IMG/VR virus record: IMGVR_UViG_3300005541_000153
Direction: 5' to 3' (one strand)
DNA from: a virus
Length of the DNA stretch: 11,407 nucleotides
The translations under genes were made by a program, and so were the position numbers. This document shows positions 3,955-7,101 of this stretch, piece after piece; positions within the stretch are counted from its first letter, which is position 1, and each line of letters starts with the position of its first letter. A model generated the notes under the pieces. It saw only the letters and a program-made list of their open reading frames with translations. It did no database searches and had not been told where the DNA came from.

Positions 3955-4223
3955 TTGACCCTCGTCATCGGCGTGCCATGCTTCGTGCAGATGGGTGTGC
4001 AGATGCCATGGACGAAGAGGCGACATCCATTCCCGCACGGCCTCAACGGAGCATCACGGTAGGTGACCGCCAGGTCAGTGTCCTGGACCTGCTGTTGGCA
4101 CACGTAGACGTGCGGTTCATCGACAGCGGCGCGGTCCCAGATCCATGGGAACACGATGAAGCCCATGAGGAGACCGAAACCCCCAATGCCCCCGCTCAGC
4201 ATCAGCATCTCAACCAGGCTCAC
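3951..4223 (-). CDS. Small membrane protein with an N-terminal transmembrane helix and a Cys-rich C-terminus.
   Basis: 90-aa ORF with a GTG start at 4223 overlapping the upstream stop (GTGA). ATGs at 4208 and 4202 are alternative starts. A hydrophobic stretch (LMLSGGIGGFGLLMGFIVFPWIW) is followed by C..(n)..CGNGC...GICTPIC. GC3 is about 79% across the part that overlaps the next ORF's annotated N-terminus. Confidence 0.6.
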   Translation of the reverse strand: MSLVEMLMLSGGIGGFGLLMGFIVFPWIWDRAAVDEPHVYVCQQQVQDTDLAVTYRDAPLRPCGNGCRLFVHGICTPICTKHGTPMTRVK

Positions 4224-4438
4224 GCTGCCTCCAGGACTTGGACCGCTGCTCGGTCGTGGAACCTCTCGGTCCTGAGGTTACCATGTTGCGTCAGGAAGGT
4301 CACATAGAGCCAGCTCGGCTCGTCCTGCTGGACTGCGATGACCAGCACCCGGCAGTAGTCGTGGTCGTGGTCACCGTCGAAGCACATCGCCTCGAACATG
4401 TCGCCAGGACACAAGTCGTAGAAGCGCCGGGACAGCAC
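4220..4438 (-). CDS. Small hypothetical protein and member of the PGD(L/M)(V/F) small-barrel paralog family.
   Basis: 72 aa with GC3 about 80%. The GTG start follows an in-frame stop. A GGGTGGG Shine-Dalgarno (SD)-like element lies in the 19-nt gap upstream. The N-terminus (CPGDMFEAMCFDGDHDHDYCRVLVIAVQQDE) is paralogous to RPGDLFYMTEYDGHAWYTCIAVVHTEDRE in gene 5443..5745. Confidence 0.65.
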   Translation of the reverse strand: MLSRRFYDLCPGDMFEAMCFDGDHDHDYCRVLVIAVQQDEPSWLYVTFLTQHGNLRTERFHDRAAVQVLEAA

Positions 4439-4457
4439 AGACCCACCCTACACCCTT

Positions 4458-4703
4458 TCACTCGTCGCCTTCACGGACTTCGATGAGCCACTTGCAACAA
4501 ATGAATCCCAAGCGACCGTCAGACAACAGACCCCAAGCGTAGTGATCGTTCTCGCGGCGATGAGGTACCGAGATGATGGTGAACAAGAAGGCATGCGGGT
4601 CAATCTTGTCACAGTCATCACTCGACTCCTCGAGGTGACGCCTGAACGAGATGTTGAAGTCCATCGGGTTCCTGAGCCTGCAGAGCGTGCCTGGAGCGAT
4701 CAT
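4458..4703 (-). CDS. Small hypothetical protein, possibly a PG-motif family member.
   Basis: 81 aa. The ATG overlaps the upstream stop (ATGA at 4700..4703). The N-terminus reads MIAPGTLCRL... Local GC is somewhat lower (about 55%). Confidence 0.5.
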   Translation of the reverse strand: MIAPGTLCRLRNPMDFNISFRRHLEESSDDCDKIDPHAFLFTIISVPHRRENDHYAWGLLSDGRLGFICCKWLIEVREGDE

Positions 4704-4945
4704 GCTTTCACCAGGAACCCGTCCTCAATCCAACCCATCACCATCGGGCATGACCACAGGACATAGGTGTAGAACTTGGCGCTCTCGTGGCTGGCAGAGA
4801 CGACGATGCCCAGGGCTCCGGGCACGATGACACCCGAGCGGTGTGGGGGTTTGGAGGTCGGATCAGCCCAGACGTCACGTGGTTGGTTGCCGCGGAGCAA
4901 CACCATGTCACCCGGCACGGGCCGTGGGTCACGTCTGAACTTCAT
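4700..4945 (-). CDS. Small hypothetical protein and PGD(L/M)V family member. An alternative GTG start lies at 4993.
   Basis: From the ATG at 4945 the protein reads MKFRRDPRPVPGDMVLLRGNQ... Its stop overlaps the next gene's ATG (ATGA). It overlaps the upstream gene's end by 17 nt. GC3 does not discriminate between the 4945 and 4993 starts. Confidence 0.5.
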   Translation of the reverse strand: MKFRRDPRPVPGDMVLLRGNQPRDVWADPTSKPPHRSGVIVPGALGIVVSASHESAKFYTYVLWSCPMVMGWIEDGFLVKA

Positions 4946-5219
4946 TGACCGCTTCCAGGTAGAGACCCGGTGTCCAGCCGAATGCGGTGCCACCGTCGTT
5001 GTTTTGCGCCATGACGTAGACTGCCTCAGCGGTGCCGTGGTGTTTCGTCTGGCGTGGGTGGATCGCCAGCACGATTCCGCTGCTCACCAGTCCCTTGTAT
5101 TGGGCAAAGTGGTTGTCGTCTGACGCGTCGTAGAGCTCGAACTTCCCGTTCCAATCCCTCTCGAACACTGGGTCGCATCTGACTAGATCACCCGTCTTCA
5201 GCTTTCCCTCCAGTGCCAT
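4929..5219 (-). CDS. Small hypothetical protein and PGDLV family member.
   Basis: 96 aa. The N-terminus reads MALEGKLKTGDLVRCDPVFERDWNGKFELY. The ATG overlaps the upstream stop by 1 nt (TGATG). Confidence 0.65.
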   Translation of the reverse strand: MALEGKLKTGDLVRCDPVFERDWNGKFELYDASDDNHFAQYKGLVSSGIVLAIHPRQTKHHGTAEAVYVMAQNNDGGTAFGWTPGLYLEAVNEVQT

Positions 5220-5479
5220 CAGTCCACCCGCTTCAAGAACTTACGGGGCACCCACCCATACTTCATCGACTTGCTGTCCAACACCAATGCCGACGAGATC
5301 GTCTCGTGCTTCTTCGTGGTCTTGTTGGTTGAGGCGGGTGTCAGCTCACCACCCAGGTACAGCCCGAACGAGAACAGGCCGACGGTGTCGCCACCGCCCG
5401 CCTTGTCGTACATCGTCAACAGACGCCCCATGGTGTTGGGGACTACCAGGTCGCCTGTCCGTAGGGTACGACGTCCCAT
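5219..5479 (-). CDS. Small hypothetical protein and PGDLV family member.
   Basis: The ATG at 5479 is preceded by a strong SD-like GGGAAGGGAG. The N-terminus reads MGRRTLRTGDLVVPN... The ORF track's 5491 start is a GTG. The gene overlaps the upstream gene's C-terminus by about 37 nt. Confidence 0.6.
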   Translation of the reverse strand: MGRRTLRTGDLVVPNTMGRLLTMYDKAGGGDTVGLFSFGLYLGGELTPASTNKTTKKHETISSALVLDSKSMKYGWVPRKFLKRVD

Positions 5480-5745: not shown

Positions 5746-5999
5746 CACACCACCATCAGGCTGTTGGCCCAGGTCCAACGCAGCTTCATGTCATGGGTGA
5801 ACAGCAGCACCGCACCCTGTGCGCCTGCCTTGGTGCCTGCCCCGGCGAAGCGGGGAACGGCAACGACCATCGCCAGACCCTCGAGCTTGCCCGTCTCCTT
5901 CTTCATCGAGTAACGACCCGTGTCACGGTGCAGTGCGATGTTCATCCACAAACTGGTGAACATGTTGTGCTTGTTGCGGACGAGGTCGCCAGGTTTCAT
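5745..5999 (-). CDS. Small hypothetical protein and PGDLV family member.
   Basis: 84 aa. The N-terminus reads MKPGDLVRNKHNMF... The ATG overlaps the upstream stop (ATGA at 5996..5999). Confidence 0.65.
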   Translation of the reverse strand: MKPGDLVRNKHNMFTSLWMNIALHRDTGRYSMKKETGKLEGLAMVVAVPRFAGAGTKAGAQGAVLLFTHDMKLRWTWANSLMVV

Positions 6000-6253
6000 C
6001 GCCGTTCATGGACGAGGTTGCTGAGGACTGCCCAAGCTCCGCTGAGCTGGTACAACACCTGAGCCGACTTGAGGAGGTCTGGCATGTAGAGCGGGTAGCC
6101 TGCACCATCGCCCGTCTTTGGGTCACCCTTGAGGCACCGCTCGGTGGCTGCCGTCAGCTTCTTGAGCTCCTCGATGACGTTGAGCCCGTGCTCGCACATC
6201 TTGGCCCGTTCACGTTCCAGTCGCTTGGGGTCGATCTTTCGCTTGGTTGCCAT
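5996..6253 (-). CDS. Small basic/helical hypothetical protein.
   Basis: About 85 aa reading MATKRKIDPKRLERERAK... The ATG at 6253 overlaps the upstream stop (TGATG, or GTGA with the adjacent GTG). Confidence 0.6.
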   Translation of the reverse strand: MATKRKIDPKRLERERAKMCEHGLNVIEELKKLTAATERCLKGDPKTGDGAGYPLYMPDLLKSAQVLYQLSGAWAVLSNLVHERR

Positions 6254-6546
6254 CACTTGCCTCCTCGGGTTCGCATCACGGGCTTCTTGGGCCAGCGTTT
6301 GCCGTTCTCCAGATCGCGGATGGCATGATCGACGAAGTCACGGAGAGCATAGAGTTGGTCGTCTCGGAGCACATAGCACCCCTGTCGCCCGCTCTCTTCA
6401 GTGTCTCTGGCGCGCTTGTCAGATTTGGGAACGTCCAAGTAGACCAGAGGATGGTTCGATGACGACACCGACAGCTTGAAGCCATCCTGCTCGTACACCT
6501 CGCTCCACGAGCTGCTCTTGCTGATGTCCTGTTTCATGTCGCTCAT
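6253..6546 (-). CDS. Hypothetical protein.
   Basis: 97 aa reading MSDMKQDISKSSSWSEVYEQDGFKL... The ATG at 6546 lies 1 nt after the upstream gene's TAG stop. Confidence 0.6.
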   Translation of the reverse strand: MSDMKQDISKSSSWSEVYEQDGFKLSVSSSNHPLVYLDVPKSDKRARDTEESGRQGCYVLRDDQLYALRDFVDHAIRDLENGKRWPKKPVMRTRGGK

Positions 6547-6547
6547 C

Positions 6548-6820
6548 CTACTCCTCGACCGGGCTCCATATCACTTTGACCCTGGGCGCTTCACACCGCC
6601 AGAAGCCGTGTTCGGTCGAGAAACAGGTAACCCAGGTCGTGTGCATCGGGTTACGTTCGTCAAAGACCTCGACCCCGATGACCAACGCCTGGTGCCCATG
6701 GGGCACGAACCGTCGTTCCTTCTCTGACCGAGCATCACGGACGACGACGTCCTGAGCGTTACCACCACCCTGGAGCGATGGGCCCTGCATCTCGATGCGG
6801 GCACCCGGTACCAGTTTCAT
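6548..6820 (-). CDS. Small hypothetical protein and PG-motif family member.
   Basis: 90 aa reading MKLVPGARIEMQG... The ATG overlaps the upstream stop (ATGA at 6817..6820). Confidence 0.6.
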   Translation of the reverse strand: MKLVPGARIEMQGPSLQGGGNAQDVVVRDARSEKERRFVPHGHQALVIGVEVFDERNPMHTTWVTCFSTEHGFWRCEAPRVKVIWSPVEE

Positions 6821-7101
6821 GGCTGCATCAGGTCGTTGTTGTGGAGCCAGCCCAGGCGGTTGTTGGGGAGCAGGCAGAAGCTGTAACCTTCGCGGCCGTC
6901 TTTCAGCCCTGTGGCAACGACCATCGCCAAGTCACCATCGCCAGCTCGGAACAGCTCGACGATGACTGTGCTGGTGCTCTCGACAACGCGTCCCAGCTCC
7001 TTGTTGTAGTGGGAACGCATCTGGGTCTCCTGGAAGACCGGGTCACCGTGGACGGGCGCGTTGCTCTTCACCATGAACAGTGCACCTGGCTTCGCTTTCA
7101 T
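6817..7101 (-). CDS. Small hypothetical protein and PG-motif family member.
   Basis: The ATG at 7101 overlaps the upstream stop (ATGA at 7098..7101). The ORF track's 7110 start is a GTG three codons upstream. The protein reads MKAKPGALFMVKSN... The C-terminus ...LMQP* and the stop context repeat the 13-mer also seen at 2500. Confidence 0.6.
   Translation of the reverse strand: MKAKPGALFMVKSNAPVHGDPVFQETQMRSHYNKELGRVVESTSTVIVELFRAGDGDLAMVVATGLKDGREGYSFCLLPNNRLGWLHNNDLMQP

Follow-up and report, generated by a model that had tools for sequence, protein, structure and literature searches.

Do the small genes at positions 4220-7101 of a viral sequence, the IMG/VR record IMGVR_UViG_3300005541_000153, form one multigene family, and what could their proteins do? 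In this stretch of 11,407 nucleotides, analyzed here at its full length and called the window, the original prediction had described at least ten consecutive small genes with a Pro-Gly-Asp-hydrophobic motif near the N-terminus, seen as repeated duplications of one SH3/KOW-like module. The explanation favored here, considered probable with some reserve, is that a lineage-specific multigene family has formed a tandem array here, encoding non-enzymatic barrel binders of ~80-100 aa (amino acids) and carried by relatives of very large phages. The family is real, is organized in tandem, turns over between genomes and matches no known family.

Gene map and recurrence of the N-terminal motif

Positions 1-9369 of the window are 100% identical to an 11.1-kb ENA metagenome contig (L001), and part of the window is also present on one JGI contig. 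Independent gene calls on L001 placed 11 co-directional minus-strand genes in exactly 4220-7101, most of them overlapping their neighbors at start and stop codons. They form part of a co-directional string that counts over 20 genes, many with start/stop overlaps, and runs from 9068 down through a GT2 glycosyltransferase gene into the gene of a Major Vault Protein (MVP) homologue. The GC content at third codon positions (GC3), 0.72-0.82 in the called frames, supports coding. For gene B, an 81-aa start (MIAPGTL), kept in orthologues, was adopted in place of the original 68-aa call. The range genes are listed below in ascending order together with gene L, and the strict motif denotes [PT]GD[LMI][VFIC]; membership refers to the profile comparisons of the next section.

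4220-4438, minus strand: gene A, 72-aa ORFan with the strict motif (CPGDMF)
4458-4703, minus strand: gene B, 81 aa, MIAPGTLCRL..., member by profile-profile comparison
4700-4945, minus strand: gene C, 81 aa, ...RPVPGDMVLL...MGWIEDGFLVKA, member
4929-5219, minus strand: gene D, 96 aa, KLKTGDLVRCDPV...FGWTPGLYLEAV, member and the protein chosen for modeling
5219-5479, minus strand: gene E, 86 aa, MGRRTLRTGDLVV...KYGWVPRKFLKRV, member
5443-5745, minus strand: gene F, 100 aa, ...LRPGDLFYMTEYDGHAWYTCIAVV, bears the strict motif
5745-5999, minus strand: gene G, 84 aa, MKPGDLVRNKHN...KLRWTWANSLMVV, member
5996-6253, minus strand: unrelated 85-aa basic protein without the motif, interrupts the array
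6253-6537, minus strand: unrelated 94-aa protein without the motif, interrupts the array
6548-6820, minus strand: gene J, 90 aa, MKLVPGARIEMQGP..., probable member
6817-7101, minus strand: gene K, 94 aa, MKAKPGALFMV...RLGWLHNNDLMQP, member
10173-10460, plus strand: gene L, 95 aa, (V)KPGDLIKVDPVDW...RLGWNSSQCFSLA, member outside the range, on the opposite strand

Seven copies of the strict motif are present in the whole six-frame translation of the window, all seven in called gene frames and at residues 3-21 of small proteins, and none in the non-coding frames. When residues were shuffled within 28 proteins (20,000 trials), a mean of 0.048 copies and a maximum of three were obtained. Six of the 11 range genes carry the strict motif (those at 4220, 4700, 4929, 5219, 5443 and 5745), and a looser PG[AT] is placed at residue 4-5 in three more (4458, 6548 and 6817). 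The genes at 5996-6253 and 6253-6537 have neither form, so that the run announced as ten or more consecutive genes consists of nine out of 11 and is interrupted.

The window has 59-67% GC and contains many long spurious open reading frames, and the motif could accordingly have recurred by chance or as a GC-rich codon artifact within such frames. This is given next to no credence, since seven copies stand against about 0.05 expected and none lies off-frame, which argues that the recurrence, as first noticed, is real. The GC3 values, and the presence of same-motif orthologues in relatives of 49-58% GC, point the same way. The artifact reading was refuted by the frame scan and the shuffles, as well as by hhalign and by recruitment with hidden Markov models (HMMs).

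At the DNA level, promoter, terminator and tRNA scans and repeat searches of the array remained at chance level, except for a 17-nt identity between genes G and K. Near and distant DNA searches of the INPHARED phages with positions 3500-7400 gave no match, and a glycosyltransferase-anchored search for syntenic loci in IMG/VR and the JGI metagenomes recovered the source contig only.

Homology among the array proteins

In BLASTP comparisons among the window proteins, array pairs matched only weakly (expectation value, E, 0.003-0.016). Leave-one-out HMM searches placed D, L, E, C and G above 1000 of 1000 shuffles (G with 13.3 bits against a shuffle maximum of 9.3), followed by F (rank 4/1000), K and A (both 22/1000), J (64/1000) and B (236/1000). 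An all-against-all hhalign comparison was performed with orthologue-group profiles, one external diverse group (X2) and seven control gene groups from the window. By hhalign probability, X2 matched L at 98% (E 5.6e-15), D and G at 96%, E at 94% and C at 92%, over 74-83 columns, and D matched L at 93% and E at 89%, while the seven control groups never exceeded 2%. This comparison, which had been proposed as a check on all the small open reading frames, links C, D, E, G and L to the external group and leaves the non-members at 2% or less.

The 8-paralogue profile found 16 matches when HMMER searched 1.84 billion representatives exhaustively. These comprised the window's own proteins, orthologues of B, G, J and L, new small members, and P0015, and a word-based search with the enlarged alignment added 13 further sequences. 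P0015, a metagenomic protein of 177 aa, is a natural tandem fusion of two domains, MKPGDIIGL...RLGWREATEFEVL followed by LKPGDLARY...EIGWVVSTFFERL. Earlier HMM iterations had included B and J in their seeds and overstated the support for both; because B, J and K had been in the first seeds, the iteration was rerun with a seed lacking these three. This unbiased seed led to a 58-sequence family profile, against which the controls stayed at or below 1.4% by hhalign.

Judged by these profile comparisons, six genes within 4220-7101 (B, C, D, E, G and K) are demonstrated homologues, gene L outside the range is the seventh, and J is a probable member. Orthologues of C were found on seven IMG/VR contigs; among 185,579 species-representative genomes, a C-type profile had no match. 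Gene D matched nothing but itself in a single-protein word search. Gene E has orthologues in the related loci L005 (36% identity), L008, L010 and L036, gene G in P0013, and gene L in P0008, P0011, P0012 and P0017; the proposal that L belongs to the family, made from its VKPGDLIKV at 10173, was confirmed by leave-one-out HMM and hhalign. Gene K has a 76%-identical orthologue in L005. With K-type sequences kept out of the seed, the HMM still picked up K, at an E of 2.7e-3 that improved to 2e-8 as the search was iterated, and hhalign gave 97%.

The two remaining genes were assessed through their orthologues. As a single sequence, B was not recruited by the unbiased-seed HMM (E ~0.4), and its 9-orthologue profile matched the 58-sequence family profile, built without B, at 93.5% by hhalign (E 2.4e-7, 71 columns). 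B is conserved in L005, L008 and L010, and its orthologues P0005, P0019-24 and P0028 keep the MIAPGTL start. Similarly, J was not recruited by the unbiased-seed HMM (E 3-40); its 7-orthologue profile matched the family profile at 63% by hhalign (E 6.9e-5, 62 columns), and it is graded as probable because it reaches this value only. J is conserved in L005, L008 and L010, and as P0016, P0021 and P0025-29.

The 17-nt identity between G and K is an exact repeat, GGCAACGACCATCGCCA, at 5859-5875 and 6913-6929, corresponding to a homologous 'LAMVVA' strand. Outside this repeat the two paralogues share 28% identity, and such a repeat would be expected by chance ~0.001 times according to our own estimate for 7 kb. 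Common origin could have left it as a relic, or micro gene conversion could have produced it.

Genes A and F carry the strict motif and are less easily placed. Gene A, for which no orthologue was found, has a coding-like GC3 of 0.82, scored E 1-19 only against the family HMM, and matched the family profile at 43% by hhalign over 18 columns confined to the central 'VLVIAV' strand. Gene F matched the family profile at 48%, and the matches of both span just 15-18 residues. Against the unbiased-seed family, both gave HMM E values above 1, and the C-terminal Gly-Trp (GW) block is not recognizable in either. An AlphaFold2 (AF2) model of F from a 2-sequence alignment had a predicted local distance difference test score (pLDDT) of 52, too poor for use. 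The statement that A and F are clearly alignable with each other was overstated, since BLASTP gave 23% identity (E 0.016 in a 26-protein database) and hhalign 5%.

It is accordingly possible, if doubtful, that the cluster is heterogeneous, with A, F and perhaps J being unrelated small beta proteins that share only a 'PGD-hydrophobic' turn in the first strand. Against this stand two observations: two extra N-terminal strict motifs in array-embedded genes would be very unlikely by chance (0.05 expected for the whole window), and an orthologue of F occupies the same array position in L008.

Other genes were found to lie outside the family. The proteins of 5996-6253 (hhalign at most 1% to all family groups) and 6253-6537 (at most 0.2%) have orthologues in L005 with 36% and 65% identity, respectively. 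The gene at 7916-8212, suggested as a member on account of its MKPGTV, fails the family HMM and profile tests. The same fate befell WRAGDLC and WRVGEIC, which belong to the following pair:

9536-9838 and 9835-10176, plus strand: tandem pair, a separate small family, not array members

These two are paralogues of each other only (BLASTP 34% identity, E 4e-15; at most 2% to the array family by hhalign). In both, the N-terminal part has a W-R-x-G-D/E-hydrophobic-C segment and the C-terminal part a conserved 'LGTEY.KLG.FI'; since the pair is also present in L005, its duplication would be older than the split of the window and L005 lineages. Duplication and diversification of one module therefore hold for seven window genes and probably for J, and the inclusion of those at 4220, 5443, 7916, 9536 and 9835 was not supported.

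Conserved blocks, predicted fold and proposed binding

Inspection of two alignments (A2 and A3) and a 41-sequence alignment revealed three blocks in B, C, D, E, G, K and L, namely an N-terminal PG[D/A/T]-hydrophobic block, a hydrophobic central strand and a C-terminal G-W/F...L..V, with J as a variant. In the 41-sequence alignment these read '.kPGDLV', 'lgLVIAv' and 'lVL.sd.rlGW.....l..V'; pattern scanning with a 25-member alignment found no stretch conserved enough. Variable segments lie between the blocks, with insertions as long as 29 residues; the main one covers ~30 residues following the first strand. Paralogues are 36%, 26% and 21% identical across the three blocks, compared with 6-10% in the segments between them, which cannot be aligned from one paralogue to another. 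For orthologues the corresponding figures are 76%, 63% and 69%, compared with 43-44%, and every orthologue group keeps its segments conserved. The variable parts are thus specific to each paralogue and yet still constrained, which suggests that the intervening segments are diversified binding modules. Moreover, the members have isoelectric points (pI) of 5.2-10.4, a spread that argues for heterogeneous partners, and none of them has a hydrophobic profile.

The fold was approached through an AF2 model of D from the 8-paralogue alignment, which had a pLDDT of 70.6, a predicted template modeling score (pTM) of 0.59 and seven beta strands. Judged by the requirement that a barrel of 5-6 strands superpose on solved SH3-like domains, the model gives moderate support to an SH3-like small beta-barrel for the array family, and the conserved blocks look like the strands of such a barrel. 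Among the viral structures of BFVD, weak matches to unnamed small phage proteins were obtained (best E 7e-4, template modeling score ~0.5). Sequence searches were negative: Pfam matches were lacking at E<=1 among the window genes and at E<=5 among 25 diverse members; the best PHROGs match had E 0.04, and no PHROGs family was matched by more than one member; a sequence-profile search of the PDB with the family profile gave a best E of 0.87; and tblastn with all 11 proteins found nothing at E<=1 in 50,697 phage records. In addition, literature searches found no description of the array family. Hence, of the barrel first proposed as SH3/KOW-like, the SH3-like fold is moderately supported, while membership in KOW (PF00467) or the bacterial SH3 families of Pfam was not borne out by the 25 members.

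KOW, Tudor-like, HspQ/YccV or CarD barrels would bring to mind nucleic-acid-binding regulators acting on transcription or DNA, and such a role is considered unlikely for the array proteins. Four members are acidic to near neutral (pI 5.2-6.8), Pfam searches gave no signature of KOW or of any other nucleic-acid-binding family, and the conserved residues look structural (a Pro-Gly-Asp turn, hydrophobic strands and Gly-Trp) and do not suggest a shared basic surface.

In the barrel-binder explanation, the paralogues would have in common one stable barrel scaffold built from the conserved blocks, on which paralogue-specific loops and surfaces would bind different macromolecular partners, of host or phage origin, during infection. 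Their mode of action would most likely be non-enzymatic, and the family would have evolved by tandem duplication, divergence, loss and the insertion of unrelated genes. We infer the binding-module function, together with any part in host takeover or anti-defence, and the latter is a plausible conjecture.

Several points weigh against this explanation. The fold is based on one moderate-confidence model from the 8-paralogue alignment; neither profiles nor structure connected A and F with the family, and J is only probable; and the faster evolution of the loops could reflect relaxed constraint rather than binding specificity. Moreover, the searches made yielded no known-family match, no fusion to an informative domain, no cultured phage relative and no homology to a named protein, and the viral nature of the contigs is that given by the IMG/VR classification.

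Array turnover and the neighboring vault gene

Tandem expansions of small-protein families are common in large viral genomes. An IMG/VR scan for loci anchored on the MVP gene retrieved 21 viral contigs of up to 436 kb, and arrays of 7-13 copies were found on related IMG/VR viral contigs of 54-369 kb (L005, L010, L022 and L036), the 369-kb relative, IMGVR_UViG_3300005529_000001, being represented by two independent assemblies of almost the same length. The window holds eight members and its closest relatives (L005/L013, L010 and L022) 7-13, while loci with a 61-74%-identical MVP hold 0-3 and those with an MVP of 49% identity or less hold none. In total, 58 members were counted in ~437 kb of IMG/VR loci versus none in 445 kb covering 28 MVP loci of bacterial metagenome-assembled genomes (MAGs). 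So far, the family has turned up only on IMG/VR contigs that are uncultured and linked through their MVP gene. Three array orders, read toward the MVP gene, are as follows:

Window, minus strand: K-J-x-x-G-F-E-D-C-B-A
L005: K-new-J-x-x-E-C-DUF7352-B, plus a second array with seven members
L008: J-x-F-E-C-B

A 12-kb slice of L036 (IMGVR_UViG_3300028654_000384, 216 kb) contains nine members, seven of them consecutive, at 5063-6968 and 208-955. Copy number and content thus vary, and the expected copy-number variation in related genomes was confirmed, with 7-13 copies and both gains and losses relative to the window. The DUF7352 (PF24043) gene of the L005 array, inserted at L005:5921-6190 and flanked by the B and C orthologues, has no counterpart in the window.

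Downstream of the array, the co-directional string leads to three further genes of interest:

2500-3537, minus strand: GT2 glycosyltransferase, 345 aa, Pfam Glycos_transf_2 5e-6
<1-2503 (L001:6867-10049), minus strand: Major Vault Protein homologue, 1060 aa, with its N-terminal 834 codons in the window
L001:10132-11109: SPFH/Band_7 gene, next after the MVP gene

The MVP homologue matches the Pfam families MVP_shoulder (2.2e-29) and Vault_3 (9.6e-9) and has an N-terminal CxxC zinc-ribbon-like segment. The pair formed with the SPFH/Band_7 gene is kept on the 21 IMG/VR viral contigs at 36-81% identity, while MVP homologues of cellular MAGs have 37-48% identity only. The sole report of viral MVP that was found is a 2023 preprint on two gut phages (10.1101/2023.11.10.566534).

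This neighborhood offers another explanation, in which the barrels would serve a phage-built cage, composed of the adjacent MVP and SPFH/Band_7 products, as accessory proteins, cargo or adaptors. The order array-MVP-Band_7 is conserved in L005, L008 and L010, where, as in the window, the array lies upstream of the pair and co-directional with it, and the overlapping gene starts and stops suggest one transcription unit. However, members also occur away from MVP, as in the second array of L005 (13466-16519) and among the nine members of L036, whose 12-kb slice has no MVP gene, none lying within 6 kb of the members. In addition, no member was found within 10 kb of MVPs of 49% identity or less (10 IMG/VR loci) or in the 28 MAG loci. 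The MVP adjacency of the array is a feature of close relatives only, and it may therefore be plain synteny by descent. A cage role is thus regarded as improbable, and slightly more so the elaborate form in which the barrels are the cargo/adaptor set of a vault-like compartment, each paralogue tethering a different client during infection. A less exotic candidate is a scaffold-plus-variable-loop repertoire of binders that neutralize host defence proteins. Irrespective of the array, the adjacent phage MVP and SPFH genes may exceed it in biological interest.

In the window alone, the GT2 gene and a 137-aa gene upstream of it (2500-3954, minus strand) separate the array from MVP, which the array abuts in L005, L008 and L010; since they occupy the gap only in this genome, they look like a lineage-specific insertion. 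Between them and gene A, 3951-4208 (minus strand) encodes an 85-aa protein with a hydrophobic N-terminal segment and a Cys-rich C-terminal half, kept beside MVP in L005 (56% identity over 54 residues). On the other side of the array, three tiny genes are clustered at 7098-7620 (minus strand). One encodes a 67-aa protein that combines a PPPPPPP run with a hydrophobic segment and an acidic tail, and another a 35-aa hydrophobic peptide; both are kept in L005. The product of the third, 72 aa long, contains six cysteines, and its zinc-finger-type Pfam matches are weak, well under the curated cut-offs. Finally, 8499-9068 (minus strand) encodes a 189-aa protein with a 'VGDRIVV...' segment and a proline-rich, basic C-terminal tail in which an AT-hook-like GRGRPKGSKNRP is found; it is 75% identical in L005 and has no Pfam match.

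The array family was previously unmodeled, with no Pfam or PHROGs entry, and a seed alignment and a fold assignment are now available for it. In this little-known lineage of huge, so far uncultured phages, a sizeable part of the small 'dark' genes belongs to the family. Its scaffold-plus-variable-segment layout and fast turnover make its members reasonable candidates for screens of phage proteins involved in host interaction or anti-defence.

Compared with known systems, the array family has no profile membership in the Tudor, KOW, PWWP, chromo, HspQ-YccV, CarD N-domain or R67 DHFR families. Unlike other SH3-like barrel systems, it has a long variable insertion after strand 1, and its proteins stand alone and are not domains of larger proteins. 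The conserved cage of three to four aromatic residues of the Tudor/PWWP/chromo 'Royal family' is also missing, the single near-invariant aromatic being the Trp of GW. Similarity was found to SH3_3 (PF08239), in the C-terminal half 'G.VIa...(x)...G..GW.....L', whereas the N-terminal PGDLV block has no counterpart in the SH3_3 alignment. Among the 1.84 billion proteins, the family profile matched P0010, a protein of five SH3_3 repeats, at E 8e-5, a weak link; comparison with four of these repeats gave 17% by hhalign (E 1.5e-3), and hmmscan found no SH3_3 match for any member. SH3_3 is the only sequence link to a named family, and a weak one. The array family differs from known large-virus multigene families in having no Pfam or PHROGs model and no relative in the 50,697 deposited phage genomes. 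In its tandem organization, fast divergence and turnover of copy number and content, it resembles the small-protein multigene families of jumbo phages and giant viruses. The family itself is new and undescribed, whereas its probable fold is a known one and gene expansion of this sort is ordinary in phages.

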